The position numbers and the translations under genes were made by a program. A DNA stretch of 64,000 bases from Clostridia bacterium (GTDB taxonomy: Bacteria > Bacillota > Clostridia > TANB77 > CAG-465): assembly GCA_030524345.1 (NCBI GenBank), contig JAUNGP010000006.1:15105-79104 (forward strand). Reading direction: 5' to 3'. Of the stretch, positions 2,272-64,000 are shown piece by piece. Within the stretch, counting starts at the first letter, position 1. Each line of letters starts with the position of its first letter. The notes below the pieces were generated by a model. That model was given only the letters and a program-made list of their open reading frames with translations, was not told where the DNA came from and searched no databases.

Positions 2272-2350
2272 AAAATGAGGGCGCTAAGGTGTAAAAGTAA
2301 CATCTTGGTGTCTTTTTGTTTTTATGATAAGCATATTCAGATATACATAT

Positions 2351-2526: not shown

Positions 2527-2751
2527 ATGAAAAAGTATGATTTCTTTGGTATGAAACAATTTCTGGTAGGAGGTAAAGCTCATCTTGACGGTGAGACAAT
2601 CATTTCACGGTATCTTATAGGAAACCATAAGATCCTCGTTGAGGACAATGACGACAGTTTTCGAGTTACCGTCGATCGTACTACCCGAGTAGTGGATTCA
2701 GAAGAAAAAGTGGAGGGAATCCTCTTAGGAATCTACCTGGTTACCTATTAA
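2527..2751 (+). CDS. small hypothetical protein (74 aa), GC-elevated, leader-controlled
   Basis: ORF directly after the conserved leader. ATG is preceded by the 4-codon uORF ATGGTGTTATTATGA. A 16-bp perfect terminator follows. Confidence 0.5.
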   Translation: MKKYDFFGMKQFLVGGKAHLDGETIISRYLIGNHKILVEDNDDSFRVTVDRTTRVVDSEEKVEGILLGIYLVTY

Positions 2752-2756
2752 AATGA

Positions 2757-2810
2757 ACACCTTTAAATGTTAGAGAAAATTTTATTTAACATTTAAAGGT
2801 GTATTTTTTG
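2757..2810 (+). terminator. rho-independent terminator
   Basis: 16-bp perfect stem (acacctttaaatgtta / taacatttaaaggtgt) followed by TTTTTTG. Confidence 0.8.
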
Positions 2811-2937
2811 CCTATTTATATATAATATATATTATTTGTGAATTACATATAATTGCTTGCTAAAAGAAATTTTCTCTAAGTATCGATAATTGGTATTAAT
2901 TGGAAAAAAAGACAAATAATAAATTTAGGGTGATGAT

Positions 2938-15968: not shown

Positions 15969-16035
15969 GGTCTTTTAAGATATAAAAACGATTGATAAAG
16001 AGGTCTATTTTAACCAGTACTATCAGCAAGTTAAA

Positions 16036-16291
16036 TTGACATAATGTCAAGAAAGTGATATAATATAAATATGGAACATATAAATTAAGTTTCCACAAAT
16101 TTTGGGAGCTAGTATCCCTTTATATTGTGTGGAACTTTCTTTTTTTTAAAAAATACAATTTTAAGGTACTCGACATACTGAGTTAGGTGCTACAACTTAA
16201 CCTATTCTACACCTGAAAGTAGACAAGTAGCAACAAGTTTTATAGAAAGGATTCCCCACGCAGTATGATAAAGGGGAAAAATGGTGTTATT
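16036..16291 (+). promoter_or_regulatory. promoter plus structured 5' leader, family copy 2
   Basis: TTGACA (16036), 17 nt, TATAAT (16059). Hairpin TTTCCACAA..GGGA-gctagta-TCCC..TTGTGTGGAA followed by CTTTCTTTTTTTT, which is terminator/attenuator-like. A 130-nt spacer. Then the SD hairpin TTCCCC-N15-GGGGAA. Confidence 0.65.
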
Positions 16292-17446: not shown

Positions 17447-17492
17447 CATTTTTGGCATAATTAGTACTTATAATATCTATAAGCAAGTTAAA

Positions 17493-17746
17493 TTGACATA
17501 ATGTTAAGAAAGTGATATAATATAAATATGGAACATATAAATTAAGTTTCCACAAATTTTGGGAGCTAGTATCCCTTTATATTGTGTGGAACTTTCTTTT
17601 TTTTAAAAAATACAATTTTAAGGTACTCGACATACTGAGTTAGGTGCTACAACTTAACCTATTCTACACCTGAAAGTAGACAAGTAGCAACAAGTTTTAT
17701 AGAAAGGATTCCCCACAGTATGATAAAGGGGAAAAATGGTGTTATT
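17493..17746 (+). promoter_or_regulatory. promoter plus structured 5' leader, family copy 3
   Basis: Nearly identical to copy 2 over about 270 nt. Confidence 0.65.
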
Positions 17747-18360: not shown

Positions 18361-19539
18361 ATGAAACAAGATCTTGGTATATATATCCATATACCTTTTT
18401 GTATAAGTAAATGTTATTATTGCAATTTTGTATCCTATGTAAATCAGGATAATATGATAGAAGAATATATCAATGCAGTCTGCATGGAAATACTACAAAA
18501 TGCAGAAATACTAAGTGAATATAATATAGCAACTGTATATTTTGGTGGCGGTACTCCCTCTTATATAGATTCAAAATATATTAAACAAATAATGGATACT
18601 TTAAACTTATTTAAAAAAGGAAATGACTTTTTAGAAGTAACACTTGAAGTAAATCCTTGTAGTGTTACTTTAGATAAGCTAATTCAGTATAGAAATTGTG
18701 GAATCAATAGAATTAGTATTGGGCTTCAATCCACACATGATGACATTTTAAAAACAATTGGCAGAAAACACACACTAAATGACTTTCATAATACATTAAA
18801 ATATTGTAAAGAGGCAGGTTTTGACAATCTTTCTGTAGATATTATATATCCTTTACCAAATCTTGATCTAAATCGTTTTTCTGAAACTTTAAATTATCTG
18901 ATGAAGGTAAAAGAAGAATACAATATTAAACATATATCAATATATAATTTAGAGATCCATAAAGGTAGTAAAATTGAGTTTTTGTTAAATGAAGGATATG
19001 TGAGCTTGGTAGACGAAGAAACTGAGTATCAAATGAAAGAATTAATTGAATCAAAGCTGAAAGAAAATGGTTTCTATCCATATGAGATTTCTAATTTTTG
19101 TGTAAAAGGTTTTGAGTCTAAACACAATATGAATTATTGGAATCAGGGAATATATCTTGGCTTTGGAGTTTGTTCATCTAGTTTCTTTGGAAGTGTAAGA
19201 TATAAAAATACTGATAGTATAAAGGAATATATAAAAGATATAAAGTCAAACATTAGTCCTATTGCAGAAAAAGAAAGTCTTGACTTACTAGATTTGATGA
19301 AAGAGTTTATAATACTAAAATTAAGACTGAAAAATGGTTTTTCTACAAATGAATTTAAAAAATTTGGAAAAGATATATTTGATATCTTCTCAGAAGAATT
19401 ACAAGAATTAAAAGAAAATCAACTAATTGATATCCGAAAAATAGAAGGAAATTTTGAAGCAAAAACTAAAAATTATAATATAGCCCTGACAAAAAGAGGT
19501 TGTGAAGTAGCAAATGTTGTATGGGAGAAATTTGTATAG
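18361..19539 (+). CDS. hemW: radical SAM family heme chaperone HemW / oxygen-independent coproporphyrinogen-III-oxidase-like protein
   Basis: CxxxCxxC radical-SAM motif (CISKCYYCNF) near the N-terminus. HemN-like length and C-terminal domain. Confidence 0.8.
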   Translation: MKQDLGIYIHIPFCISKCYYCNFVSYVNQDNMIEEYINAVCMEILQNAEILSEYNIATVYFGGGTPSYIDSKYIKQIMDTLNLFKKGNDFLEVTLEVNPCSVTLDKLIQYRNCGINRISIGLQSTHDDILKTIGRKHTLNDFHNTLKYCKEAGFDNLSVDIIYPLPNLDLNRFSETLNYLMKVKEEYNIKHISIYNLEIHKGSKIEFLLNEGYVSLVDEETEYQMKELIESKLKENGFYPYEISNFCVKGFESKHNMNYWNQGIYLGFGVCSSSFFGSVRYKNTDSIKEYIKDIKSNISPIAEKESLDLLDLMKEFIILKLRLKNGFSTNEFKKFGKDIFDIFSEELQELKENQLIDIRKIEGNFEAKTKNYNIALTKRGCEVANVVWEKFV

Positions 19540-49859: not shown

Positions 49860-50294
49860 CTAATTATCAGAAAACAACTTATTCATCACTTGAAAGCTAT
49901 TTAAAAGTTCTTCCCTTTCCTTTTCTGAAAGTCCTTCCCAGTTCTTTTTATATTTTTTACTTAAAAAATCATTTAATTCCATAATTACTAGTCTTCCTTG
50001 TTTGGTAAGTGATACATCTACTACTCTTTCATCATACTTTTTTCTAAGCCTTAAAGTATAACCTTTTTTCTCAAGTCTTTTACACTGGGCAGACATATTC
50101 CCTGTATCCATGCTCATTTCACTACTTAACTCCCCTATATTTAAAGTTCCTTCTTCAAATAAAACAGCAAGTATTTGATACTGCAAATATGTTATTTTAT
50201 GCTTATAGCAAAAAGGACGTAAAGCTTCCATAAGTCCATTTTCCATATTTCTATTTAACTTATCAATTGTATTTTTATATGTAATAAAATTCAT
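49860..50294 (-). CDS. MarR family transcriptional regulator
   Basis: Winged-helix region LQYQILAVLFEEG...IGELS...DERVVDVSLTKQG. Confidence 0.8.
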   Translation of the reverse strand: MNFITYKNTIDKLNRNMENGLMEALRPFCYKHKITYLQYQILAVLFEEGTLNIGELSSEMSMDTGNMSAQCKRLEKKGYTLRLRKKYDERVVDVSLTKQGRLVIMELNDFLSKKYKKNWEGLSEKEREELLNSFQVMNKLFSDN

Positions 50295-50477
50295 ATAAAT
50301 CCTCCTTTAAAAAAACTATATTTCTATTAAAAATATATGTATTTCACATATTATATAATTTATATGAAATTAATGCAATAGTAATCCCCCATTTTTTGAT
50401 AAATTTTCTAATTTATGATATAATAATAGTAGTAATATTTTTTATATCTATAAAATAATTTTTAAGGAGGAACGACT

Positions 50478-50678
50478 ATGTTCAAAAAAATGGTGAAAGA
50501 TGTAAAAAGCGTAAGGAGACTGATTGAAGTGAAAAAGGCAGCTGGTTTTACTGTTGGCAACAAAAAGATGATCAACGGCGGTCATACGCTACTGATCAAT
50601 TTGAAAGCTCCTGACGGTCACTGTGACGAACAAGTCTTAAGACACGGATTCAATCCGTTATTGGCTATGTTTGTCTAA
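50478..50678 (+). CDS. small hypothetical protein (66 aa), GC-elevated, strongly signalled
   Basis: TTGATA, 17 nt, TATAAT promoter. AAGGAGG SD. Terminator ggcgaccaactggtcgcc followed by a T-run. Confidence 0.55.
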   Translation: MFKKMVKDVKSVRRLIEVKKAAGFTVGNKKMINGGHTLLINLKAPDGHCDEQVLRHGFNPLLAMFV

Positions 50679-50684
50679 ACATCA

Positions 50685-50712
50685 AAACGGCGACCAACTG
50701 GTCGCCCTTATT
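50685..50712 (+). terminator. rho-independent terminator
   Basis: GC-rich 8-bp stem ggcgacca/tggtcgcc followed by CTTATTTTTTTATTTT. Confidence 0.85.
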
Positions 50713-50715
50713 TTT

Positions 50716-51327
50716 TTATTTTATTTTGACATTATTTTTCTTTTCATAATCTCCTTTTAATTTATATGCCTCATCTAACATACTCTTAGCAAACTCATTT
50801 AATTTTGCTTTATCCTCAGCAATTTCCTTTGTAACATATACTGGTTTTCCATAAATCACATATACCTTAGAAAATAGCCTAGCATTTTTTGTAAGATATA
50901 CTGGTATAATTGGTACATTTGCTTTATATGCAATATATGCAGCTCCAACTTTGGCAATACCTTTTTCTTTATCCTTTTTGATTCTTTTTCCCTCAGGAAA
51001 AATTAAAAGTTTTCTTTTTTCTCCCTCACTAAATATATTAATAGCATGCATAACACTTTTGACGTCTTTCTCTCCCCTACGAATTGGAAAAACATGGCAC
51101 TTTCTAAATAAATATCCAAAAAATTTATATTTAAAGAGTTCAGCTTTTGCCATAATCCATAAATTATCAGTTTTTGCATATATCCATAAGGGTTCTAGCG
51201 TATTGGAATGATTTGGACATATTAAACATTTATCAAGATTTTCCTCTGCCTCTTTATTGACATACCTTACTCTATATAAAAAATGGCATACCACAATATT
51301 AATAATGAATTTTACAAATTTAATCAT
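50716..51327 (-). CDS. plsC: 1-acyl-sn-glycerol-3-phosphate acyltransferase family protein
   Basis: ICPNHSNTLEP (HxxxxD/E acyltransferase box) and FPEGKR motif. Overlaps cmk by 4 nt. Confidence 0.75.
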   Translation of the reverse strand: MIKFVKFIINIVVCHFLYRVRYVNKEAEENLDKCLICPNHSNTLEPLWIYAKTDNLWIMAKAELFKYKFFGYLFRKCHVFPIRRGEKDVKSVMHAINIFSEGEKRKLLIFPEGKRIKKDKEKGIAKVGAAYIAYKANVPIIPVYLTKNARLFSKVYVIYGKPVYVTKEIAEDKAKLNEFAKSMLDEAYKLKGDYEKKNNVKIK

Positions 51328-52010
51328 GATAGTTCAACTCTTTCCTTTAAAAGCTCTATCACCATATCTACTGTCTCATCATTTGTAAGAGAAGTAGTAT
51401 CAATTTCAATTGCGTCCTCTGCTTTCCTTAAAGGGGATTCTTTTCTTGTTGAATCTTGTAAATCTCTTTTTAATAATTCTTCCCTTATAATGTCAATATC
51501 TTTTATCTCTCCCTTTTTAGCCAAATCCCTTTGCCTTCTTATCGCACGTATATCTGCAGTAGCACTTAAAAATATTTTTAAAGTAGCATTTGGAAATACC
51601 ACAGTACCAATATCTCTTCCTTCTAAAACCACATTAGAATTTTCTGCCATTTTTCTTTGCAATTCAACTAACTTTTCTCTTACTGGTAAAAATTTTGATA
51701 CATCAGATGCTGCCATACTAGCTTTAGATGTACGGATTTTATCTGTCACATCCTTATTATTTAAAAATACTTTTGTCATATTATCCTCATATGCAAGTCT
51801 TATATCGATACTATCAATATTTCTCTTAATATTTTCTTCTGTAAGCTCTAGTCCTTTTTCTAAAAAATATACTCCTGCTGCTCTATACATAGCACCAGTA
51901 TCAATATACAAAATATTTAATTTTTGTGCTATTCCTTTTGCTAACACAGATTTTCCAGTTGCAGCACAACCATCTATTGCAATAATATAATTTTTATTTG
52001 ATTTTTCCAT
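51324..52010 (-). CDS. cmk: cytidylate kinase
   Basis: IIAIDGCAATGKSVLAKGIAQKLNILYIDTGAMYRA P-loop/NMP-binding. Start at the internal Met with AAGAGGAGAGAGG SD; the ORF-track N-terminal extension of about 59 aa is rejected. Confidence 0.9.
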   Translation of the reverse strand: MEKSNKNYIIAIDGCAATGKSVLAKGIAQKLNILYIDTGAMYRAAGVYFLEKGLELTEENIKRNIDSIDIRLAYEDNMTKVFLNNKDVTDKIRTSKASMAASDVSKFLPVREKLVELQRKMAENSNVVLEGRDIGTVVFPNATLKIFLSATADIRAIRRQRDLAKKGEIKDIDIIREELLKRDLQDSTRKESPLRKAEDAIEIDTTSLTNDETVDMVIELLKERVELS

Positions 52011-52107
52011 AAATATTCCTCTCTCCTCTTTATTTTTCACAAGATTTATGTTATCATATATGTTGATATTTGTAAAGTAATTTTTAACGAAAGGTAGTGA
52101 ATTTATC

Positions 52108-52638
52108 ATGGCAAAAGATTTAGAACTTTTTGATAACAAAATTATAGTATTATATATACTTGACACAAACTCTAAAGCTTTATCCATTGATCAAATTGCA
52201 AAATTTTGTGAAGATTTCGATGATATAACTTACTTTGACATCTGTGCTTATGTAGAAGATTTAAAAGCAAGTAATTATATCAAGGAAGTCTTGCAAGATA
52301 GTAATTTGCTATATGAAATAACAGAAAATGGTATTTTAACATTAAGGGAACTATTAGAACTAATCCCTGGTGTAAATTTATATAATATAAAAAAGATCAT
52401 CAATAAAAATATTGTGAAAGTAAAAACTGATTATTCAATTGATACTGTAACAATCCCTATTAAGTCAGAAGAATTTAAAGTCTCCTGTTATATCAAAGAT
52501 GGTAATGATGAACTTGTGAACATCACAATATATGCTGGAAACAAAAATCAAGCCAAAAATATTTCTAAAAATTGGAATGAAAATGCTGAAAAAATATATT
52601 CAACACTATTAGAAATGATGACAAAAGATGAATTATAA
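52108..52638 (+). CDS. hypothetical protein (possible winged-helix N-terminus)
   Basis: ORF with start overlapping the cmk upstream region. No strong motif. Confidence 0.45.
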   Translation: MAKDLELFDNKIIVLYILDTNSKALSIDQIAKFCEDFDDITYFDICAYVEDLKASNYIKEVLQDSNLLYEITENGILTLRELLELIPGVNLYNIKKIINKNIVKVKTDYSIDTVTIPIKSEEFKVSCYIKDGNDELVNITIYAGNKNQAKNISKNWNENAEKIYSTLLEMMTKDEL

Positions 52639-52735
52639 ATAGATACTATTCGTTTTATTTTTATGATACTTGCATTTTATGAAGTATTATACTATAATAA
52701 ATATGTTAATTTTAAAGCTATAAGGAGTGAATTTT

Positions 52736-54013
52736 ATGTTAGATATAAAGTATATAAGAGAAAATAGTGACATCGTAAAAAAAGCAGCTGAAAATAAACT
52801 AATTCAAGTTGATATAGATCGTTTATTAGAAATCGATTTGCTGCTTCGTAACAAGAATCAAGAGCTTGATACATTAAGAGAAGAAAGAAATAAACTCTCT
52901 TCTTCTATCCCAACTCTTGTAGATCCTGAAAAGAAGAATACAATAGAATATGTAAGAACACTAAAAGATAAAATTTCAGCACTAGAATCAGAAGTTGCAC
53001 CTTTAAAAGAAGAATTTGATAACTTGATGTATGAGGTTCCTGGCGTTCCTTTTGAAGAAGTCCCAATTGGAAAAACAGATGAAGATAATGTAGAAATCAA
53101 AAGGGTTGGCAAAATCCCTACTTTTGATTTTGAAATTAAAGACCATGTAGATTTAGCAGAATCTCTTGATTTAGTAGACATTCCTAGAGGCGTAAAAGTT
53201 GCAGGATCTAGATCTTATTATCTAAAGAATGAAGCTGTATTACTTGAAATGGCTTTATGTAGATATGTTGTTGATAAATTGGTCAAAAAAGGATTTACAC
53301 CAATGACTGTTCCTACACTTGTAAAAGAAGCACCTATGTATGGTACAAGTTATTTCCCTGGCGGACGTGATCAAGCTTATGCAGTAACAGAAGATGAGTT
53401 ATACCTAGTTGGGACTTCTGAAGTAGCTCTTGTCTCTTATCATAGTAATGAGACTTTTGAAAGTGAAGCAGAACTACCAAAAATGTATTGTGGATATTCA
53501 AGCTGTTACAGACGTGAAGCTGGTACTTATGGTAAAGATACAAGAGGTCTTTACAGAGTTCATCAATTTACAAAAATTGAGCAAGTTATCATGTGTAAAG
53601 CAGACTTTGATGAACAATATAGACTACATGACTTTTTACTAAATAATGCAGAGGAAATTCTACAAGACTTAAAAATCCCATACAGAGTTGTTAAAGTTTG
53701 TACTGGTGATATGGGAATTGGACAAGTAAGAAAACATGATATTGAAGCGTGGATGCCAAGTCGTGGCAAATATAGCGAAACACACTCTTGTTCTTCTTTT
53801 AATGATTTCCAAGCAAGACGTAGTAATATCAAATATAAAGATCAAGATGGCAATACAAAATATTGTTATACATTAAATAATACTGCAATTGCCTCACCAA
53901 GAATATTAATTCCGCTTCTTGAATTATATCAAAATGCGGATGGATCTGTAAACATACCAGAAGTTTTAGTTCCATATATGGGTGGTATGACAAAAATAGA
54001 AAAGAAAAAATAA
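52736..54013 (+). CDS. serS: serine--tRNA ligase
   Basis: MLDIKYIREN coiled-coil tRNA-binding arm. Class II motifs (FRRE-like CYRREAG, GxGxGxxR-like region). Confidence 0.95.
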   Translation: MLDIKYIRENSDIVKKAAENKLIQVDIDRLLEIDLLLRNKNQELDTLREERNKLSSSIPTLVDPEKKNTIEYVRTLKDKISALESEVAPLKEEFDNLMYEVPGVPFEEVPIGKTDEDNVEIKRVGKIPTFDFEIKDHVDLAESLDLVDIPRGVKVAGSRSYYLKNEAVLLEMALCRYVVDKLVKKGFTPMTVPTLVKEAPMYGTSYFPGGRDQAYAVTEDELYLVGTSEVALVSYHSNETFESEAELPKMYCGYSSCYRREAGTYGKDTRGLYRVHQFTKIEQVIMCKADFDEQYRLHDFLLNNAEEILQDLKIPYRVVKVCTGDMGIGQVRKHDIEAWMPSRGKYSETHSCSSFNDFQARRSNIKYKDQDGNTKYCYTLNNTAIASPRILIPLLELYQNADGSVNIPEVLVPYMGGMTKIEKKK

Positions 54014-54058
54014 TAATAAACGATATCGAGACTTTAACCATTCTCGATATCGCTTTTT

Positions 54059-54412
54059 TTAAATAATATCTACGGGATAATAGTATAAGAACACTTCATT
54101 AACCGCATCTATTTCAGAATCAAACTCAAAATAGAGCTTCAGTTCTATTGGAAGCTCCTGATATTTTTTCATAATCTTCCGATAATCTTTGGCTGTTCTT
54201 TCCTTTTTAATCAGCCAGTTTAAAAACTTTTCAAGTTTTTTCAGATGTTTTGGCTTAATATCCTTTGTCCTTTCAAAATCAAAGTCTTTCACTTGTTCTA
54301 AAGTTTCATACGCATACGAAATAAGATGCTTAATTGCTCGTTCCCGTTCTACTGCTAAAGCACTATTATACTTTTGTGCTTCTTGTAAAATATTACTTTC
54401 GAAAATTTCCAT
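54059..54412 (-). CDS. hypothetical protein, GC-elevated
   Basis: ORF only. Confidence 0.4.
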   Translation of the reverse strand: MEIFESNILQEAQKYNSALAVERERAIKHLISYAYETLEQVKDFDFERTKDIKPKHLKKLEKFLNWLIKKERTAKDYRKIMKKYQELPIELKLYFEFDSEIDAVNEVFLYYYPVDII

Positions 54413-54569
54413 CGCTTTTCTCTCCTTTCATAATCATATTAGGTTTATATTTTCAATAATCATATTATAACTTGTTTTTGATTTTATGTCAAGCTAATCT
54501 TACTTTTATAACAATATATTGCTTTTTTACCTAATATATGTTATGATATTGATGTTAGTGAGGTAAATT

Positions 54570-55151
54570 ATGTTAAAAAATGTAAAATTTGAAACTTCTA
54601 TATTTAGTGCAAAACAAATTCTTCAAACTGAACTTGAGCAGATTGTTCTTGTTGGTAAATCTAATGTTGGTAAGTCATCCTTTATCAATAGTCTTTGTGG
54701 TCAAAAAAAACTAGCAAAAGTGGGACAAAATCCCGGAAAAACTAGAAGTATCAACTATTATAATGTTAATCAAGAATTCTATTTAGTAGACTTACCAGGA
54801 TATGGATATTCAATTATGTCGCAAAAGGAAAAAGAAAATATAAATCAATTAATAGACCATTATATGAATAAAAATAATAAAATTAAACATATATTCTTTT
54901 TGGTAGATATCAGACATCAGCCTACTGAAAACGACAGAACGATGTATGAATGGTTACTAGATAAAAAAATTCCATTTACCATCATTGCTACAAAAGCTGA
55001 TAAAATTGCAAAAACCAAAATAGATGAGTATACTCTTCAAATAACAAAAACGCTTTTTGCAAAAGAGGAGATCATTGCCTTCTCTAGCGAAAATAAAATA
55101 AATATAGAAAAAATTGAAAATATCATATTAGATGTTATAAAAGCTGACTAA
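54570..55151 (+). CDS. engB: ribosome biogenesis GTP-binding protein YsxC/EngB
   Basis: LVGKSNVGKSSFINSL (G1) and DLPGYG (G3) motifs. Confidence 0.9.
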   Translation: MLKNVKFETSIFSAKQILQTELEQIVLVGKSNVGKSSFINSLCGQKKLAKVGQNPGKTRSINYYNVNQEFYLVDLPGYGYSIMSQKEKENINQLIDHYMNKNNKIKHIFFLVDIRHQPTENDRTMYEWLLDKKIPFTIIATKADKIAKTKIDEYTLQITKTLFAKEEIIAFSSENKINIEKIENIILDVIKAD

Positions 55152-55189
55152 AATCAGCTTTTTTTTATTCAAAAAAAATTGACTAATTG

Positions 55190-55918
55190 TCAATTCTTTA
55201 TATCATTTTCAATTTTTTCTTCTGCCCTACTACTAATTTTATATCCAATAATACCAAGAGCTATAAATAGCGCAACAAGTAATATTGCTATAATAAAATT
55301 TCCTTCAGATAATCTGTTTCCAGCATAAACAGTAATGAATAAACCAGGGATTCTTGAAATAGTAGCAATTATTAAGAATCTCTTTGGATTTACGGGACTA
55401 ATTCCTGCTAAATAGATAAATATATCTTTCGGAATGAGTGGTATCACGAACATGATAAACATAAAAAGTTCCAATTTTTTTGGATTTTTAAATAGCTTTT
55501 TATTTTTAAACTTATCAATCTGCTCTTGGTCAAAAAATAGCTGTATAAAACTAATACCAATTTTCCTAGTTAAATAAAATACAATGAATGTACCAATAAA
55601 GATACCAACTAAACAAAGTAACATTCCACCTAATGTTCCATAAAGCATACCAGAGATAATTTCCATTGGCTGGCCTGGAATGACAGCTACTACAATTTGA
55701 AGTATTTGTAATCCTAAAGTGATTATAACTCCTTTGATTCCCATATTAGCAATATCATCTTTTAATTCTAATCTTGATTCTTCTGTTGCAAGTTTTGAAA
55801 TAAACGGTAAAGCCTTTATTGTAAGATATGTGATCAAACAAATTGTTAAAAATATGATAATTGTTCTTATCAATAGAATCTTTTTTTCCTTTTTTGTTAA
55901 TTTCTCTTTTCTTGTCAT
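55190..55918 (-). CDS. TVP38/TMEM64 (DedA-related) family membrane protein
   Basis: Multi-TM protein with VIPGQPMEIISGMLYG motif. Confidence 0.75.
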   Translation of the reverse strand: MTRKEKLTKKEKKILLIRTIIIFLTICLITYLTIKALPFISKLATEESRLELKDDIANMGIKGVIITLGLQILQIVVAVIPGQPMEIISGMLYGTLGGMLLCLVGIFIGTFIVFYLTRKIGISFIQLFFDQEQIDKFKNKKLFKNPKKLELFMFIMFVIPLIPKDIFIYLAGISPVNPKRFLIIATISRIPGLFITVYAGNRLSEGNFIIAILLVALFIALGIIGYKISSRAEEKIENDIKN

Positions 55919-55998
55919 TATGCAAAACCTCACATTTTCTAATTATAACATATAACGACATTACTTACAATAAAATAACAAAAATATAGAGCAATTTT

Positions 55999-56418
55999 TC
56001 ATACCCTTTTCTTCCCTAAATCTTGTGAAAATCTTAACAAATACCCATCTGGATCCATGATTAAAAACTCCCTATTTCCTAATAATTCATTATCTTTTCT
56101 ATACCAATTTTCCTCCATATCTACCGTAACATCATAATGATTTGCTAACACGTTATGATAGATACAATCTACATTTTTTACTTCTAATTGAAAATTAATT
56201 CCCCTTCCAAACGGGTATTCTAGTTTCCCTGTTTCCCACTTGTTATTCTGAGTATCTAACTCTTGTAACATGAATTGTATTTCTCCTAAAGAAAGAAATA
56301 CAAATTTATCCTCTCTTCTTTCATATTCCAATTGAAAACCTAATATATCTTGATAAAAATGTAATGATTTCTTAATATCTCTAACATCTAACTCTGGTAT
56401 TATTTTATTATAATACAT
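55999..56418 (-). CDS. VOC (glyoxalase/bleomycin-resistance) family protein
   Basis: PELDVRDIKKSLHFYQDILGF beta-alpha-beta-beta-beta motif. Confidence 0.7.
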   Translation of the reverse strand: MYYNKIIPELDVRDIKKSLHFYQDILGFQLEYERREDKFVFLSLGEIQFMLQELDTQNNKWETGKLEYPFGRGINFQLEVKNVDCIYHNVLANHYDVTVDMEENWYRKDNELLGNREFLIMDPDGYLLRFSQDLGKKRV

Positions 56419-56645
56419 AGTCTTTCTCCTTTATACTAATATAATTTTATCATGGAAAAAATAAAATGCAATATAGTTTAAATAAAAACTATATTGCATC
56501 TTACTTTTATTTAACCATATGCCAAGAAAAAATAAGACCCAAGAGAAAAAAGGTCTTATTTTTAATTTAACTTAAAAAACAGGAGGTTATCAAGTTAAAT
56601 AAAGTGTTAAACACCTATTATATATATATTCACATAATACGATAA

Positions 56646-56885
56646 TTATTCCATATGATCTATGATTTTTTCAAATTCCCTTTGCGACAGCACTTTTCCC
56701 TCGCTAACAAGATTATCATTTACAACTAGCCCTGGGATATTTTTCACCCCATATTTCCCCATCGATTTCTGATCATCTAATTTTTCTATTTTTATAATAT
56801 TGTCATGTTCTTCCGCCACACGTGTTATGACTTTGCAAAGTTGTATTCCATTTCTACAGTTTGCACCTATGATTTTAACATTCAT
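56646..56885 (-). CDS. thioredoxin-fold small protein (redox-active-disulfide-protein-2-like) with CxxG instead of CxxC
   Basis: MNVKIIGANCRNG...KYGVKNIPGLVVNDNLVSEGKV resembles the TIGR00412 family. Start chosen at the Met with AAGGAG SD; the upstream part of the ORF-track model is rejected. Confidence 0.55.
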   Translation of the reverse strand: MNVKIIGANCRNGIQLCKVITRVAEEHDNIIKIEKLDDQKSMGKYGVKNIPGLVVNDNLVSEGKVLSQREFEKIIDHME

Positions 56886-57047
56886 ATCCATTCTCCTTTC
56901 CATATCATTTTTTGTTTTTACATTATCTCCTTTACTGATATGCTTATTATAATCAATATTTGTGTTATTTTTATGTTCATTTTCAAAAAATAATGTATGA
57001 ATCCAATGAAAAATACCAGACATCATTTCATATGTCTGGTATCCCAA

Positions 57048-57389
57048 TTATTGCTTTTTGTAATACTCCAAATGTACTTTCTCCCCATTAGACTGAAAGA
57101 TTTCCTCCCCTACATCAAATCCAAGTCTTGATAGAACGTTGTACGTAAAAAGTGGTCCTATACCTCTATATCCTGCCGTAGCGACGGCAATACTTGCAAC
57201 GCACTCAATTTCATTTTCAACAATCCGAAAAAGTTGTAGTGGCCAGGTGTCAGATTCTGAGTAGTTGACTTTGGAGCCTTTTACATAATCAATAACAGCG
57301 ATATGGAAGAATTCTTCTACATCTTTGAAGCTAAATATCTGCTCATATGCAATATCTGTGTATGTTCCTCCAAATTTCATCTTAAACAT
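57048..57389 (-). CDS. hypothetical protein, GC-elevated
   Basis: ORF only. Confidence 0.4.
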   Translation of the reverse strand: MFKMKFGGTYTDIAYEQIFSFKDVEEFFHIAVIDYVKGSKVNYSESDTWPLQLFRIVENEIECVASIAVATAGYRGIGPLFTYNVLSRLGFDVGEEIFQSNGEKVHLEYYKKQ

Positions 57390-57479
57390 GTGCTTCCCCC
57401 TATAATAATTATATTTTTTGTAAAAAAATCGCTGTTAATATTATATCACATTTCAAAGTACTTGTAAATATTATGTAAA

Positions 57480-58436
57480 TCACTTTTGTGATTTCTCTTT
57501 ATTTCTTTTATCATTAATCATATCCATTTCTTTTTCTGTTATGAGAAATACCTTATTTTCTTTTGCCCAAGCAACACAGCCTTTCAAAACAGTATTTAAA
57601 AAGACTCTTGGAACTTTGATAAGTCTTTGACAAGCCTCATCTGTAAATTTAATTTCTGGGTCTATTCTGGAAGCAGCATATTTTACAGTATCTAAACTAA
57701 TTCCTTTGCTTGCTGGAATTGGTTCTGATATAGGTCTTTTAAACCTAGTATACCAAAAATTTTTATTGTCCCTATATCCATAATCAACTGGTATAGCTGG
57801 AAATCCTCCCGCTCTTACACCATTTACGATAGTATCATAATACTGGTTCTTCATTAATATATTATCTATCTTGAGAATAAAATGTGCTCCATGCTCACTA
57901 GTTATTCCATTAAAATCATGGTATGGTGGTAAGTACTCTTCTTTTACAGTATCATTTTGCGCATGATCTAGTTCCTTTACCCAAGTACATTCAAATACTT
58001 GAAATGCCTCTTTTACAATTTTAGGATATTTTTCATTTGGATTCTCTCTTGCCCTTTTTCCATCAACTAGAGTAAAAATACAGTCCTTCATTTTCTCATC
58101 TGTTGTCTCACCTGGATATCCCAGTCTTACTGCCTCCTTAAAATATTTCCTTTTATCAGTTATAAAATTGATACTACATTTTCCGGTTTTTAAAATATTT
58201 TTTGCAGTGTTAGAACTATTTCTACAACAAAGCACCATAGCATAATAATCCTTTCCTGCAATATAATATGGAAAACACAAAGAATAGGAACCTAAATTTG
58301 TCTTTCCATTTTCATTTAATGTACCAATCTCAGTTGTTGGCATTGGAAAAAAACTAGATGTTTGATAGAAATTATCAACAATTCTTAAATTTTTAAATCC
58401 TTCTAATTCCTCTATTTTTTTCATTTCTTCACTCAT
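57480..58436 (-). CDS. flavin-reductase-like (FMN-binding split-barrel) domain protein with C-terminal extension
   Basis: N-terminal region LGSYSLCFPYYIAGKDYYAMVLC...CSINFIT resembles the flavin reductase-like fold. Confidence 0.5.
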   Translation of the reverse strand: MSEEMKKIEELEGFKNLRIVDNFYQTSSFFPMPTTEIGTLNENGKTNLGSYSLCFPYYIAGKDYYAMVLCCRNSSNTAKNILKTGKCSINFITDKRKYFKEAVRLGYPGETTDEKMKDCIFTLVDGKRARENPNEKYPKIVKEAFQVFECTWVKELDHAQNDTVKEEYLPPYHDFNGITSEHGAHFILKIDNILMKNQYYDTIVNGVRAGGFPAIPVDYGYRDNKNFWYTRFKRPISEPIPASKGISLDTVKYAASRIDPEIKFTDEACQRLIKVPRVFLNTVLKGCVAWAKENKVFLITEKEMDMINDKRNKEKSQK

Positions 58437-58456
58437 ATATCTTTCCCCCTTATAAT

Positions 58457-59641
58457 TTATTTTACCAAGTCATATGTGTCTCTTGCTATCATAAGCTCTT
58501 CATTAGTAGGAACAACGTAAAGTTTTACTTTTGAATCATCAGTAGAAATACATACTTCTTTTCCCTTTACTTTATTTCTATCTTTATCTAACTTAATATC
58601 TAAAAATTCTAAATAATTGCATATTCTCTCGCGAGCCTCATATCCATTTTCGCCTACTCCACCAGTAAAAGTGATAACATCGACACCTCCAAGAGAAACC
58701 ATATATTGTGCAATATATTGTGCAATTTTATATGCCTGAGAATCAAGAGCAAGCATAGAACGGCTATCATTATCTTCATATGCTCTTTCTATATCCCTAT
58801 AGTCTTCCGAAACGCCGGATACTCCCCAAGCACCAGATCCCTTATTTAAAATTTTTTCCATTTCTTCTATTGTTAATTTATCACGCTTCATGATATAAGT
58901 TACAATAGAAGGATCAATATCGCCGCATCTAGTAGCCATCGGAATACCAGACATTGGTGTAAGCCCCATAGAAGTCTCTATAGACTTTCCATTCTCTATA
59001 GCACATATAGATGCACCTTGTCCTAAATGGCAATTGATTACTTTCATATTTTGATTACCCAAAATTTCAGCTATTCTACCATATACATACCTATGACTAG
59101 TACCATGGAATCCATATTTCCTAATTTTGTACTCTTCGTAGTACTTATACGGTATTTGATATATATATGCCTCTTTAGGCATAGTCTGATGAAAGGCTGT
59201 GTCAAATACAGCAACCATTGGCACATTAGGTAACTTTTTTTGCATAGCCCTAATTCCAGCAATTCCTTCAGGATTATGTAGTGGTGCAAGAGGAATGCAT
59301 TTTTCTATTTGTGAAATCACTTTTTCATCTATTAAAACAGACTGATTAAAGATTTCTCCGCCATGTACAATTCTATGCCCAACAGCTCCAATTTCATCTA
59401 GTGATTCTAAAGCTTTATACTCATTACTAGTTAATAGTTTTAATACAATGTCTAGTGCTTCTTTATAATCTCTTGCCACATGTTGTATAACATGTTTTGT
59501 TCCTCTCACATTAAGTCTTAAAGATGAATTCTTTCCACCAATCCTCTCATAGTTTCCTTTTACAATTCTCTCTTCATTTTTCATATCAATCAGTTGAAAT
59601 TTTAATGTAGAGCTACCACAATTCAAAACAAATATTTTCAT
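58457..59641 (-). CDS. ackA: acetate kinase
   Basis: MKIFVLNCGSSTLKFQL N-terminus. VHGG motif. AVFDTAFHQTMP. Start at the internal Met with AAAGGAG SD. Confidence 0.9.
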   Translation of the reverse strand: MKIFVLNCGSSTLKFQLIDMKNEERIVKGNYERIGGKNSSLRLNVRGTKHVIQHVARDYKEALDIVLKLLTSNEYKALESLDEIGAVGHRIVHGGEIFNQSVLIDEKVISQIEKCIPLAPLHNPEGIAGIRAMQKKLPNVPMVAVFDTAFHQTMPKEAYIYQIPYKYYEEYKIRKYGFHGTSHRYVYGRIAEILGNQNMKVINCHLGQGASICAIENGKSIETSMGLTPMSGIPMATRCGDIDPSIVTYIMKRDKLTIEEMEKILNKGSGAWGVSGVSEDYRDIERAYEDNDSRSMLALDSQAYKIAQYIAQYMVSLGGVDVITFTGGVGENGYEARERICNYLEFLDIKLDKDRNKVKGKEVCISTDDSKVKLYVVPTNEELMIARDTYDLVK

Positions 59642-59798
59642 AAGACTCACTCCTTTAGTGTCAAATTGATACTTTAGTATATCATAAACCTTGTCTATTG
59701 TAAATTCATTTTTACGATAAATAATGAAAAAACTATCCTTGTACCAATATATGTTAATATTATAGTACAAAAATACAATTTAATTTTACAATAGTACA

Positions 59799-59827
59799 TT
59801 GATTATCACAAAAAACTTATATATAAT
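59799..59827 (+). promoter_or_regulatory. consensus-like sigma-A promoter driving a noncoding transcript convergent with cas9
   Basis: TTGATT, 17 nt, TATAAT. Confidence 0.6.
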
Positions 59828-59833
59828 AAAGAT

Positions 59834-59937
59834 AATACACACCTAACACACACACTCGTTATACTTTCCTATTGTTTTATAATAAATTTGTCACTATCAA
59901 GAAGGATTACTTCCTTCTTGTTTTTATTTTTTTAAAT
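59834..59937 (+). ncRNA. candidate ~100-nt small RNA abutting the cas9 3' end (possible tracrRNA / fixed guide RNA)
   Basis: Defined by the promoter at 59799-59827 and the terminator caagaaggattacttccttcttg plus TTTTTATTTTTTT at 59898-59937. Contains no ATG. The U-tract overlaps the last cas9 codons on the opposite strand. Confidence 0.5.
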
Positions 59938-62900
59938 GAAAATTCATGCGTATCTCGGGTAATTTTACCTCAGTGTAATTGCCTAAAATATCTACCTGAT
60001 ACTTTTTTATAACAGCTAAATTTCGAACTCCAAGACTTGGTTGCCAATATCTTCTATCATGAGTAGACAAAGCAATGGATGAGGAATTAATCCCACATTT
60101 TATATAGTATCCATATATTTCATTAACAAATATTTTTTCTTTTGTATTTCCTTTCTTCATTGAAGTTAAATAAAAGCCTTTTTTGCTTTGAATATAAACT
60201 AAATCTCCCGGATATAATGAAAAAATAAAATGATCATTTTTCATTTCTTTCCACTTAGATTGTGGCTTAGCGGAAACACAAGCCTTACTTGGCAATGCTT
60301 CTCTAATAGTATCTGATACATATATTGGTACAAAATAATATCCTTCATTAGGAATATGGAAAACATCAATTCTTACTGTATCTCCATTTCCTGCAACTCC
60401 CCCTATTTTATCTATTTTAACATTGCTAGAACTTTTTAACTCTAGTTTTACTTTATTTACAATAGGACCCTTTTCTCCATTTGATTTTGGTTTAAAGAAA
60501 GGTTTACTAAAAGCTACTTTGGCATTTCCATTCGCTTCTATTAATTTTTTTCTTAGCGCTTCATATAATAGCCTATCATCTTTTTTATTATAATAATTTT
60601 CTATCTCATTTTCTTTATTTAACTTAAGCTCAGTAAGTTTTTTTCTAACAATGATGTTTCCATTTTTACATAATCCATTAATTGTTTCCTTATGTGCCAT
60701 TCCTCTCACTTTCCTATTTGGCATTTTAGATACAAAAATTGCTTTTGGATTATCATAGACATTGATCATTTCCAGTTCTTTTTTTACTTCACTATCAGTA
60801 TCTTTCATTCTTGCTTTAAGTTCCAAAATAATTTTTTGATACGCCTCACTTAAATCCATTCTTTTATTACATGTGATACTTTGGATCATCTTTTCACTTA
60901 CTATGGCAATAATAACAGCATCAAGAGCATGATGTTTATCATCTTCTCTAGACTTATTTAAATGAAACATTTTCCTAACAGTATAGGTAATTCCCCCTCT
61001 TAAAGCCATAATTCTTTTACTTTCAGAAATATTTTCATTTGGCTCAATATACAAATAATTTCTGATTAGAGAAAGTACAATTCTTGTTATATATTGAGTA
61101 TCTTTTAAGTTTCTTTCTTTCCATAACATTTCCTCCTCCAAAGAAATCGTCTCTTTCAAAAGATTGCTTACCTTTTTGTGCGTTTTAAGACAGGAAAGTA
61201 CTCTTTCTTTGTATTCATCTATGTTTTTACCAGATTTTAAAATATATTCATTTGGCAACATATCTCCCTTACTTCTAATTTCACATACTTTTGCAAGTAC
61301 TTTATTGTGATAACTATTATCAAAAGTTCTATGATAGGGAATCATATAATCAATATCTACTTTTTTGGAAAATAATTCGCTCAAAGGAATCGTATCCCCA
61401 GAATAGATACATGTTCCATTTTGTTCTTTCCAAAGTCTATACTTTAATATTTCTTCATCTGTAACATTTTCCTTACAAAATTTTTCTTTTATTTCCGTGA
61501 CAATACTTTGTTCCCTAAGCGCATTTGCTGCATTTTCTCTACCAATTCTGGTAATGAATTCTCGAGCAAGTTCTATGTTTACAATTTCAGGACTGCCATA
61601 TTTATCAATGATAGCATTAATTACTTTAATAGACTGTGATATTCCTCGCCTTACTACTGGATTTGTGATCTCTGTTAAATCATTTAATGACAACTTCCTC
61701 TTCTTTTCAAAGTTCATATTTCCTCTAAAATCATGATATACCATATTCGTTGCTTTATCATATGTAAGTCCCTCTTTCAAATAAGGGATTATCTTTTTCA
61801 TTGCCTTGATGGAAAGATGACTAAAATTGGAAAATGTTATATTTAATAGCAATGAAACTATCTGATCATTTAATCCAATTTTAGACAAATATTCTATTCT
61901 TTTCTCATCACTTTTATACAAAGTCAGTATGGTTGCTATATAATCTAATGTATTCTCGTCAAAATGATATATATAGTCTTTTTCATAACCATCTAAAACT
62001 TTTCTTAATTTATGAAAAGACTCTAATTCTCTTAACTTGATATCTGTATTTTTTTCATTTTGTTCTATAACATTTTTGGTATCTTCACTTTTTGATAAAG
62101 AAAAAAAGTTATAATGGATCATATTAAATATCTCATCATCCGGAAGATGAATTATTTCCCTGATACGAAAATAGGAAAGCTCTGATGTATGTCTAAATTC
62201 TTCAATAATTTTTACTTTCTCATCTTCACTAAGTTCTCTTGTATCTGACTTTTTATGATTCATGATTCCATTTTTTCCTACATCCAAATTTAATTTTTCA
62301 ATCTTAATTTTATTTAAGTCTTGTAACAATTTAAATATTTCAAATGTATATGTACTTTTAGCAGCCCTTAGCTCATTTTTTTCAAAAGTACAAGTTCCTA
62401 TCATCTTCTCTATGACATTTCCTGTATAATGGCTTGTAAAAGCAGGTCCTTCATCAAAATTTCGCTGTGACAAGAATATATTTATATATTCATTAATGAA
62501 TTCCTCATCTATATTCTCATAATAATTCCTTTGGCTATCTAAAATAAGTTTTATCTCATGCAATATATGTTCTCTTTTAACTACAGAGCCATAATCCCCT
62601 ATTTTATTTCTCACCTTCAGTATTTTATCACCATTTGAATCGAGGACAAATTCATTTTCTACACGATATTTAAATTTATCATCTTTTAAATACATTTCAC
62701 CAACAGTTCTATATCCCTTCTCTATAAGGATTTTATCATTTTCAGCAATTGCCTTTAAAACTTTACCGTTTTTATCATCTAATGTATTATATTTTGCATT
62801 GGATTGATAACCACGCTTTTTAACAAAATGAATCAGTAGTGAAGCAAGTTCTAACTTAGATATTTTATGATCCAATGCTTTTACTCGAATTTCATAAATA

Positions 62901-63187
62901 TTATGACAATGTATTTGATATAATTCGCTCTCACTTACAATATTGCTTCGAATTAAGAGTTGTTTTACTCTTAAAATTCTATGAGTTCTTCTTCTCAATC
63001 TTCTTCTATTACTTCGCTTTTTACTTCTTTCTTCTGCAAGAGAAGCCCCACTTTTAGGAACTTCTGCAGCTTCAAATATTCTCACACCAAGATCTAAAAT
63101 TTTGACTGGCTCTCCCATATCATCATCTTTTACTACTGCCCAGCCAACTGATGTAATTCCTATGTCTAGCCCTATTCTATATCCCAT
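59924..63187 (-). CDS. cas9: type II CRISPR-associated endonuclease Cas9-like protein with degenerate HNH active site (orphan; no cas1/cas2/array)
   Basis: RuvC-I IGLDIGITSVGWAV. Arg-rich bridge helix RRRLRRRTHRILR. RuvC-II EIVNIELARE. HNH block DIDYMIPYHRTFDNSYHNKVL...EIRSKG has Tyr at the catalytic His position and Ile at the metal-binding Asn position. RuvC-III KHHALDAVIIA. Start at MGYRIG with GGAGGG SD. Confidence 0.85.
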   Translation of the reverse strand: MGYRIGLDIGITSVGWAVVKDDDMGEPVKILDLGVRIFEAAEVPKSGASLAEERSKKRSNRRRLRRRTHRILRVKQLLIRSNIVSESELYQIHCHNIYEIRVKALDHKISKLELASLLIHFVKKRGYQSNAKYNTLDDKNGKVLKAIAENDKILIEKGYRTVGEMYLKDDKFKYRVENEFVLDSNGDKILKVRNKIGDYGSVVKREHILHEIKLILDSQRNYYENIDEEFINEYINIFLSQRNFDEGPAFTSHYTGNVIEKMIGTCTFEKNELRAAKSTYTFEIFKLLQDLNKIKIEKLNLDVGKNGIMNHKKSDTRELSEDEKVKIIEEFRHTSELSYFRIREIIHLPDDEIFNMIHYNFFSLSKSEDTKNVIEQNEKNTDIKLRELESFHKLRKVLDGYEKDYIYHFDENTLDYIATILTLYKSDEKRIEYLSKIGLNDQIVSLLLNITFSNFSHLSIKAMKKIIPYLKEGLTYDKATNMVYHDFRGNMNFEKKRKLSLNDLTEITNPVVRRGISQSIKVINAIIDKYGSPEIVNIELAREFITRIGRENAANALREQSIVTEIKEKFCKENVTDEEILKYRLWKEQNGTCIYSGDTIPLSELFSKKVDIDYMIPYHRTFDNSYHNKVLAKVCEIRSKGDMLPNEYILKSGKNIDEYKERVLSCLKTHKKVSNLLKETISLEEEMLWKERNLKDTQYITRIVLSLIRNYLYIEPNENISESKRIMALRGGITYTVRKMFHLNKSREDDKHHALDAVIIAIVSEKMIQSITCNKRMDLSEAYQKIILELKARMKDTDSEVKKELEMINVYDNPKAIFVSKMPNRKVRGMAHKETINGLCKNGNIIVRKKLTELKLNKENEIENYYNKKDDRLLYEALRKKLIEANGNAKVAFSKPFFKPKSNGEKGPIVNKVKLELKSSSNVKIDKIGGVAGNGDTVRIDVFHIPNEGYYFVPIYVSDTIREALPSKACVSAKPQSKWKEMKNDHFIFSLYPGDLVYIQSKKGFYLTSMKKGNTKEKIFVNEIYGYYIKCGINSSSIALSTHDRRYWQPSLGVRNLAVIKKYQVDILGNYTEVKLPEIRMNFHLKK

Positions 63188-63238
63188 ATATCCCTCCAAG
63201 AGCAAAAGTGTATCTGAAAAAAGATACACTTATGTCAA

Positions 63239-63958
63239 TTATTTTTCATAAATTAATATTGTATAAGAACTATTACCACGATACTTTTTTGTCATAGGAG
63301 TAAAATCATCTTCTCCATCAAAAGTAAATACAGTAAGTTCTATAGGAGATACTATATTTCTAGTATTTTTATCTCCAACTAATTTAATTGAACTACAAAT
63401 TCTCTCATCATTCATGATATCTTGTGTTATATGATAATATGATCTTCCAGGTATTAAATGAATATCATCATATAAATAGCATTGTACTTTAGGAAACAAT
63501 AAATATGCATCATCAGGATTTAAGACTATTTGATTGATTGTTTCTCCGCTATCTAAAGTAAACTTTATGTTATACCCTATTTTATAATTGTTATAATTTA
63601 CATACTCATGATAATACTGATCAAAAATTGTTTTAAAATCATCTCTAACAATTTCTTCCTCTAGTGTAGGTATTGCATAAAAAATCCCCATAATATTTTC
63701 TGCAGAAAAGTCACAATAGTATTCTTTTACTAGCCTTTTTCTATTTCCTTCGTCAATATATAATCCTATTTTCATTTCATTCTCATCTACATATTCTTCA
63801 GTTTTTTGAGATTTTACTTCATTTTCAAGCGTTTTCGATGCTTCACTAACATGAGAAGATATGTTTGTTACAACTTTAGTATTTGATAGTACTATTTTTG
63901 CAACGACTACACAGAGTAGTATCATACAAATTAGAATAACGAATATTTTCTTTTTCAA
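63239..63958 (-). CDS. hypothetical membrane-anchored/secreted protein
   Basis: N-terminal signal/TM segment (KIFVILICMILLCVVVA). A weak terminator hairpin (gtgtatc/gatacac) lies between it and cas9. Confidence 0.5.
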   Translation of the reverse strand: MKKKIFVILICMILLCVVVAKIVLSNTKVVTNISSHVSEASKTLENEVKSQKTEEYVDENEMKIGLYIDEGNRKRLVKEYYCDFSAENIMGIFYAIPTLEEEIVRDDFKTIFDQYYHEYVNYNNYKIGYNIKFTLDSGETINQIVLNPDDAYLLFPKVQCYLYDDIHLIPGRSYYHITQDIMNDERICSSIKLVGDKNTRNIVSPIELTVFTFDGEDDFTPMTKKYRGNSSYTILIYEK

Positions 63959-64000
63959 AATGCCACCTCATAAATTATATTCCTATTTTAGCATTAAAAA

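Follow-up and report, generated by a model that had tools for sequence, protein, structure and literature searches.

It is established for TnpB, in the form of TldR, and for Cas12f-like proteins that RNA-guided nucleases have been turned into regulators in nature. To our knowledge, natural repression by Cas9 is known only for catalytically active Cas9s in complete CRISPR loci. The subject here is a cas9 gene, and a unit resembling a CRISPR RNA (crRNA) gene directly after it, in 64,000 nucleotides (nt) of the genome of a gut Clostridia bacterium (contig JAUNGP010000006.1, positions 15,105 to 79,104 of the forward strand; this whole stretch is called the window). To judge by its parts, an immune nuclease has apparently been converted here into a protein that binds or nicks DNA at one fixed target.

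The closest functional resemblance is to the TldR proteins, which are nuclease-dead TnpB-like factors with an adjacent guide gene, a polyphyletic origin, graded loss of catalytic residues and a non-mobile context (PMC10705468). The window locus shares with them the degraded active site, the non-mobile context and the fixed adjacent guide; taken with the HNH-dead lineages described below, it also shares the polyphyletic origin and the graded loss. Throughout its clade, conserved inactivating substitutions, in this case in the HNH domain, go together with a conserved guide at a stable, non-mobile position. However, the TldRs derive from TnpB with its single RuvC site, and their promoter targets have been identified and tested, whereas the window protein is a Cas9 with its RuvC residues intact.

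Fixed guides are also used by Cas9 itself. The Francisella novicida scaRNA and the Streptococcus pyogenes tracr-L are CRISPR-derived RNAs that use a fixed short guide to take Cas9 to the chromosome without double-strand cleavage (PMC10120712). The likeness to the window locus is a functional analogy in the fixed CRISPR-derived guide; in contrast to the window Cas9, the Cas9s concerned are catalytically active, belong to complete adaptive loci and have known targets, and cleavage is avoided by partial complementarity rather than by a dead site. Mini-arrays distinct from the trans-activating crRNA (tracrRNA) have been reported from about 6% of type II loci (PMC10120712). These and the crlRNA and CreR elements are, like the window unit, degenerate repeat-spacer-repeat units adjoining cas genes, but they lie beside full arrays and intact effectors and are usually aimed at cas or toxin promoters. 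The window unit likewise places a solitary repeat-like element and a spacer-like sequence close to the effector, but nothing else of CRISPR remains at the locus, and a match between the unit and the cas9 promoter region was not found.

The canonical type II-C systems of Neisseria meningitidis, Campylobacter jejuni and Geobacillus have the same protein family and domain order as the window Cas9, and the intact sister systems are arranged as tracrRNA, cas9, cas1, cas2 and array. The window locus departs from this in having no cas1, cas2 or array, in the loss of the HNH His and Asn, in that no tracrRNA was found, and in having one fixed spacer that is conserved between species at a core chromosomal position. 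Five type II-C features were tested: the Cas9 effector is there, with its RuvC-I/II/III, HNH, REC and PI domains, and the other four (HNH competence, cas1-cas2, array and tracrRNA) are not seen in the sequence read. The HNH His lost in the window clade, and the HNH residues and RuvC Glu, His and Asp lost in a second lineage described below (P0126), are at the positions altered in the engineered nickase nCas9 (H840A-type) and the engineered dead dCas9; in contrast to these, the variants here occur in nature, are conserved, go with one native guide each, and are known from sequence. What sets the window locus apart from all of the systems compared is a Cas9 whose HNH is genetically inactivated and whose RuvC is kept, together with one native guide. 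No description of a natural HNH-dead or stand-alone Cas9 was found in the open-access literature searched, and an earlier one may exist.

The Cas9 protein and the solitary repeat-spacer unit

The features that make up the locus are:
63187..59924, minus strand: cas9, 1087 amino acids (aa) from the ATG at 63187, with GGAGG ahead of the ATG
61253..61411, minus strand: HNH core (Pfam HNH_4), with Tyr614 and Ile637 at the catalytic sites
59799..59933, plus strand: solitary CRISPR unit, directly after cas9 and on the opposite strand to it
59799..59827, plus strand: sigma-70-type promoter of the unit, TTGATT-17-TATAAT, a 10/12 match and the top-scoring site on this strand
59828..59857, plus strand: spacer-like guide AAAGATAATACACACCTAACACACACACTC, 30 nt and CA-rich, with the 3' seed ACACACACACTC
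59858..59881, plus strand: first 24 nt of the family CRISPR repeat, GTTATACTTTCCTATTGTTTTATA, the part that pairs with a tracrRNA anti-repeat
59898..59933, plus strand: intrinsic terminator, with a 9-bp stem and a T-tract, overlapping the cas9 stop codon

The cas9 product, NCBI protein MDO4282832.1, matches TIGR01865 over its full length (690.8 bits, cut-off 100), contains the Pfam domains HNH_4 (E 1.4e-12), RuvC_III and Cas9_RuvC, and is likewise matched by the PADLOC Cas9 models. The listed open reading frame (ORF) starts further out, with a GTG at 63229 (63229..59924, minus strand, 1101 aa). Among proteins of solved structure, its best relatives are Cas9s of type II-C, GeoCas9 being one of them (E 4e-174, full-length alignment), and on the strength of these matches the ORF is judged to be a genuine type II-C Cas9. 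In the GeoCas9 alignment EVDH lies opposite DIDY and ENREKGN opposite EIRSKGD, and therefore the general-base His corresponds to Tyr614 and the metal-binding Asn to Ile637. The Tyr614 codon, TAT (61346..61348), is one transition away from CAT; the Ile637 codon is at 61277..61279. The signature of a catalytically competent HNH (DxDH...N...N) is not present in the window Cas9, and the RuvC tetrad (D8, E539, H753 and D756) is complete. A dead HNH had been proposed in a first-pass annotation of the window, made from its letters and ORFs, and the residues at 614 and 637 bear this out: as judged from the alignment, HNH is dead in this Cas9, with no loss among the RuvC residues.

The same annotation had seen no direct-repeat array in the 64 kb. 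An array is indeed absent, since neither Tandem Repeats Finder nor a direct-repeat search gave a CRISPR-like array in the window, but the single CRISPR-derived unit at 59799..59933 had been overlooked. Its origin can be read from an intact relative (P0014, contig L007), in which an array comes after cas9-cas1-cas2; its repeat, 36 nt long, is ATTATACCATAAAATAAAACATTAGGGAAGTATAAC (cas9-strand spelling). Nucleotides 1-23 of the L007 repeat match 59858..59880 with two mismatches, for a chance expectation of 0.00. The L007 tracrRNA lies upstream of cas9 and on the cas9 strand, as anti-repeat, nexus and terminator, and L006 has the same arrangement; the crRNAs are therefore read antisense to cas9. 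In this RNA sense the repeat is GTTATACTTCCCTAATGTTTTATTTTATGGTATAAT, and the repeats of the relatives end in TGGTATAAT, which is readable as an extended -10 box. Repeat-embedded promoters of this kind are described for N. meningitidis and C. jejuni. The orientation of the window unit is thus fixed by the tracrRNAs of its relatives, by its plus-strand promoter, by the repeat 3' end TGGTATAAT and by its terminator, which was scored on the plus strand only, there being no T-tract on the cas9 strand.

The part of the repeat that has been kept, nt 1-24, is the exact extent of the duplex with the L006 and L007 tracrRNAs (-19 to -21 kcal/mol). In the minimum free energy structure of the predicted RNA of about 95 nt, guide and repeat are unstructured and the terminator stem follows. 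By its sequence, the -10 box of the promoter goes back to the 3' end of a second repeat, now degenerate, and the whole is the cas2-proximal last unit of the ancestral array, left after deletion of cas1-cas2 and the other units. The small RNA that the first-pass annotation had placed beside cas9 is best read as a crRNA-like unit and not as a tracrRNA. A natural single-guide fold for this RNA was considered and rejected, as there is support for no structure other than the terminator hairpin, which is absent from L003, and the linker lacks conservation. Further copies can be looked for with the repeat-unit string GTTATAYTTYCCTANTGTTTTAT; a scan of Joint Genome Institute (JGI) metagenomes gave no copies of the unit.

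Conservation in the clade and recurrence in other lineages

The window Cas9 and its five closest homologues (55-66% identity) form one clade, in which the His to Tyr substitution, the loss of the metal-binding Asn and the complete RuvC tetrad are common to all members and Tyr614 is invariant. Six syntenic lineages can be compared (the window, L002, L003/L010, L005, L085 and L086), with a common gene order of a 240-aa gene, cas9, the crRNA unit, ackA, a DUF447-like gene and, further on, serS. Synteny with ackA is seen in L002, L003, L005 and L086, and orthologues of the upstream gene precede cas9 in L002-L005, L085 and L086. There is no cas1, cas2 or second cas9 on the syntenic contigs. Three elements of the unit are invariant in the six lineages: the -10 box TATAAT, the 12-nt seed ACACACACACTC and the repeat start GTTATAYTTTCCTA. 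Seed and repeat together make an invariant block of 36 nt, and the intergenic DNA that flanks it is largely unalignable.

The proteins have diverged to different degrees, the identities among the lineages being 93-96% for SerS, 79-87% for AckA and only 58-63% for Cas9. The divergence of Cas9 is not evenly spread. The relative conservation of the HNH domain is 0.56 in the clade versus 0.69 in the intact sister clade (identity ratio 0.80), whilst for the protospacer-adjacent motif (PAM)-interacting and WED domains (PI/WED) it is 0.73 versus 0.68 (identity ratio 1.07). By these ratios the HNH domain is selectively relaxed in the clade and PI/WED is not.

The guide itself contains both fixed and variable parts. 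Its (CA)n/(GT)n tract (window 59837-59857) varies in length among the window, L002, L003, L085 and L086, a variation that looks like microsatellite slippage. Across the same five, 24-30 nt separate the -10 box from the repeat, so that the predicted guide lengths range from about 17 to 23 nt. The last 20 nt contain 5-8 CA dinucleotides in the guides of two independent lineages, as against 0-3 in 21 ordinary spacers. A degenerate-repeat scan of the species genomes of GTDB matched the mouse-gut metagenome-assembled genome (MAG) MGBC120553 (L010) once, at the solitary unit, which argues against an array with the same repeat elsewhere in that assembly.

Judged from catalytic residues and gene content, HNH has been lost independently in two other Cas9 lineages, one of which is also RuvC-dead, and both are without cas1 and cas2 and have a solitary repeat. 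Their features are:
L009, 2393-2478: tracrRNA
L009, 2496-5792: cas9 (P0046)
L009, 5820-5875: solitary unit
L012, 513-3671, and L090, 10001-13159: cas9 of P0126/P0297, 1052 aa

P0046 shares 62% identity with intact Cas9s that belong to another subclade, as against only 50% with the window Cas9. It has the His to Tyr substitution, and its short contig contains no cas1 or cas2. The reduced unit downstream has a CA-rich guide, ATGTATGGAACACACACTCACACACACCAC, and a repeat that pairs with the upstream tracrRNA of L009 at -21 kcal/mol. The layout is cas9 stop, hairpin, repeat, CA-rich spacer and -10 box, and the next gene encodes a CsoR-type repressor. P0126/P0297 have gone further, with loss of HNH (INY, SEAEQ), Glu to Lys in RuvC-II and HHAxD to KYSIN in RuvC-III, and from these residues they look like a natural ‘dCas9’. 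An intact-looking tracrRNA lies upstream of the gene and a degenerate solitary repeat downstream; the locus is placed between rho and an FGE-sulfatase-like gene of housekeeping type, with no cas1 or cas2 within 10 kb on either side. The 12-nt guide seed of P0126/P0297, TTTTAATTGTGT, has one exact match in mutS (L090 3452-6079), on the minus strand at about 4262, in an orientation that would block elongation. The rough chance probability of such a match is about 0.03 for the 46 kb searched, and, being post hoc, the match is speculative.

Representatives at 50% identity add P0144 (HNH dead), P0169 (both sites dead) and several RuvC-dead forms with an intact HNH. The latter pattern is seen in P0176, P0261, P0285 and P0207, where RuvC residues are replaced (for example D to N, E to T, H to Y and D to K) and HNH is canonical. 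The canonical catalytic residues are present in all 80 of the metagenomic relatives fetched, and cas1 or cas2 lies downstream in 53 of the 54 intact relatives with at least 2.5 kb of downstream flank. In Fisher's test the association between HNH state and cas1/cas2 has p = 1.4e-7 if each of the six dead contigs that have enough flank is taken as a separate case, and p = 0.002 if the count is reduced to the two independent origins for which there is enough flank.

L006 (13400-14200) appears to be an intermediate stage of reduction: HNH is intact, cas1 is a remnant of 14 aa, cas2 is fragmented and only five mutually divergent repeats remain. In L088 (1686-12086), the HNH-intact sister P0008 belongs to a complete cas9-cas1-cas2 locus about 4.4 kb downstream of ackA, in the gene order ackA, nrdD, nrdG, nrdR, cas9. 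The linkage between this Cas9 family and ackA may therefore predate the reduction.

Surroundings of the locus

The neighbouring features in the window are:
58457..59638, minus strand: ackA (acetate kinase), downstream of cas9 on the same strand
63239..63958, minus strand: upstream gene, 239 aa, hydrophobic at the N-terminus and without a cas domain
63206..63231, minus strand: terminator-like hairpin between the upstream gene and cas9, at the site of the tracrRNA gene in relatives

The flanks are as the first-pass annotation had described them. Downstream, on the same strand, the match to Pfam Acetate_kinase (E 3.5e-146) identifies ackA, which has a promoter of its own (TTTACA-17-TATACT, 59704..59676) and probably starts at the ATG at 59638. 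Upstream, beyond the hairpin (63231..63206), the 239-aa product is a small membrane or secreted protein outside the Cas9 system. The wider surroundings are housekeeping in character, with serS, cmk, engB, typA and GH94 genes.

The absence of an adaptation module near cas9, also part of that annotation, holds beyond the window. A tblastn search with the L007 Cas1 and Cas2 gave nothing in the window, L001-L005, L009, L010 or L012, and the Pfam Cas1 and Cas2 models had no match among the called genes of L001 and the syntenic loci. The discovery of cas1/cas2 and an array just past 64000 had been named as what would overturn the claim. L001, a public contig, coincides with window 49924..64000 at 100% identity and continues for 9,187 bp past 64000; no cas1, cas2 or repeats were found in those 9,187 bp, which bring the total sequence read around the locus to about 73 kb. 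The genes in this extension (L001 1-9187) resemble a defence island: CTD10, MC6 and DUF2326 genes, a phage-integrase fragment, a helix-turn-helix gene, an EcoRI-type methylase (restriction-modification), a GmrSD_N/HNH protein and an SMEK_N protein.

The proposal of a stand-alone effector that cannot acquire spacers is supported by the absence of cas1 and cas2 from these 73 kb and from the six syntenic lineages, and it fits the single repeat copy in the mouse-gut MAG as well as the retention of cas1 or cas2 in 53 of 54 intact relatives. The Cas9 is not guide-less, because one hard-wired, strongly conserved crRNA-like gene has been kept, and the stand-alone state is not one-off decay, because it is conserved, vertically inherited and has arisen more than once. 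An origin of the Cas9 clade in phages was considered and set aside, as no relatives were found in viral contigs.

Elsewhere in the window, two copies of a promoter-plus-leader, each about 240 nt long and 99% identical to the other, lie 1,457 bp apart (16020-16259 and 17477-17716), and a third, diverged copy of the leader lies at about 2350-2540. Each copy of the leader precedes a small ORF, there is no Rfam match, and the leader may be an undescribed cis-regulatory one.

Interpretation and alternatives

What the sequences show is the gene content, the residue states, the synteny, and the fact that the protein and the seed-plus-repeat block are conserved. The explanation that seems reasonably probable to us, reading function from these features, is a domesticated, chromosomally fixed Cas9 with a single fixed guide, acting as a regulator or a nickase. 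The locus would descend, by vertical inheritance and fixed in the chromosome, from a type II-C CRISPR-Cas9 system that has been cut down to two genes. One is a cas9 whose HNH would be dead and whose RuvC tetrad, RNA-binding lobes and PAM-interacting domain would be under purifying selection. The other is a crRNA-like gene whose promoter would have been recovered from a degenerate repeat, with a CA-rich spacer of 30 nt, a 24-nt repeat start and a terminator, predicted to give an RNA of about 95 nt. As cas1, cas2 and the remaining array are gone, no new spacers can be added. The RNA would be made and loaded on Cas9, with the seed ACACACACACTC guiding the complex to one fixed DNA target, where Cas9 would bind and block transcription in the manner of CRISPR interference. 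A nick in the non-target strand would be possible if RuvC is still licensed.

Several results weigh against such a role. Canonical Cas9 needs a tracrRNA to use a crRNA, and none was found in the window, L001 or the syntenic loci by an RNA duplex scan, by nhmmer with the tracrRNAs of three relatives (which align poorly with one another) or by an anti-repeat regular expression. The site of the tracrRNA in relatives holds only the hairpin in this clade. Rfam gave nothing around the locus at a permissive E-value, nor in the whole window at gathering scores. No clear cas9 promoter was seen in the 50-nt gap upstream of cas9. Searches for a target were also negative: there were only chance-level protospacer or seed matches in the window and the fetched loci, 72 matches in IMG/VR to a 14-mer, none of which extended further, and matches in phage and plasmid collections only at E >= 2. 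The L005 cas9 (1087-4383), otherwise intact, has one in-frame TAA at codon 180, which is either a recent pseudogenisation or an assembly error. Finally, all of the sequences compared are MAGs or metagenome contigs, which limits genome-wide checks.

Other candidates turned up in these searches. The best non-self anti-repeat duplex, at window 12846, was rejected as the ribosome-binding region of rpmE. Remnants of a tracrRNA are possible, from sequence resemblance, in L002 and L003; the L002 hairpin ACCACTA..TAGTGGTTTTTCT resembles the terminator of the L007 tracrRNA. Autoregulation of cas9 by the guide was rejected, as the region upstream of cas9 is not convincingly complementary to it. The window has just one other CA tract, AAAACACACACTA (18765-18777, plus strand), which lies inside the ORF 18361-19539 and matches 9 contiguous guide nt, with a mismatch at the repeat-proximal base; this match is probably due to chance. 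The crRNA-like unit of L005 is intact.

The same gaps could mean that the locus is a type II-C system part-way to loss, with the Cas9 and the leftover repeat unit functionless. A clade with no detected tracrRNA, a nonsense codon in L005 and a guide with no target found would all fit such a relic, and decay intermediates do exist, L006 having lost cas1 while its cas2 is degraded, its repeats are degenerate and its HNH is intact. Nevertheless, decay without function is quite improbable in view of the pattern of conservation. Despite the divergence of Cas9, ORFs of >1,080 codons remain open in DNA of 29% GC in six lineages. The Nei-Gojobori dN/dS for cas9 is 0.17-0.35, or 0.19-0.35 when the window gene is set against its orthologues; an intact Cas9 pair gives 0.20, ackA 0.09-0.14 and serS about 0.05. 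These values are rough, and to that extent count less in favour of a functional Cas9, because a dS of 0.9-1.4 is near saturation. Relaxation is confined to HNH; PI/WED shows the same degree of conservation as it does in intact relatives. The RuvC tetrad and Tyr614 do not vary within the clade, nor do the 36-nt seed-plus-repeat block and the -10 box, amid intergenic DNA that has diverged. It might instead be that the Cas9 is not truly stand-alone, and that a tracrRNA, perhaps with an array and cas1-cas2, lies elsewhere in the genome, the window Cas9 being an HNH-dead paralogue that shares these RNAs. The 24 conserved repeat nt are exactly the tracrRNA-pairing part, which argues that a tracrRNA exists somewhere, and with about 73 kb of the genome read a second intact type II-C locus is a possible source of the RNAs. 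This too is unlikely, however, since the repeat pattern occurs only once in MGBC120553, at the solitary unit, the syntenic contigs are without a second cas9, cas1 or cas2, and L009 and L090 demonstrate that solitary units occur with a cognate tracrRNA but without an array.

A further alternative leaves the Cas9 out of account, with the conserved block being regulatory DNA for ackA or part of a sense-strand RNA (a cas9 3' untranslated region or a tracrRNA-like RNA) and the Cas9 independent of it. The block is about 200 nt upstream of ackA, its GT-rich part varies in length among the lineages, and the hairpin after cas9 has no T-tract on the cas9 strand, so that cas9 transcripts probably continue through the block. 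Yet the same layout follows the independently HNH-dead cas9 of L009, which also has a separate, bona fide tracrRNA, and there the neighbour is the CsoR-type repressor gene and not ackA. The repeat-like part is not followed by a nexus or hairpins like those of the relatives' tracrRNAs, the promoter and terminator suit the plus strand, and an unstructured guide and repeat followed by a terminator are what is expected of a crRNA. A block that is not a guide gene is thus very unlikely.

If the locus is a domesticated Cas9 with one fixed guide, it need not be the only one. It is possible, though we put this forward tentatively, that Cas9 has been domesticated repeatedly in gut Clostridia to give hard-wired, one-guide host factors, some of nickase type and some fully dead, as counterparts of the TldRs. 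The nickase type would comprise the window clade, P0046 and P0144, and the fully dead type P0126 and P0169, and each form would have shed cas1-cas2 and the array and kept a single crRNA gene. The loci can be arranged as a reduction series from adaptive immunity to fixed specificity, from the intact L007, through L006, where cas1 is lost, and the window clade, where HNH is dead, to the fully dead P0126. If repeated domestication is correct, the independent evolution of CA-rich guides in two lineages would suggest a common kind of chromosomal target, and evolution would also have made native equivalents of nCas9 and dCas9. The window locus would then provide a nickase or binder that is both compact and natural and comes with a guide scaffold of its own, and a testable case of the role of a single conserved guide for its host.

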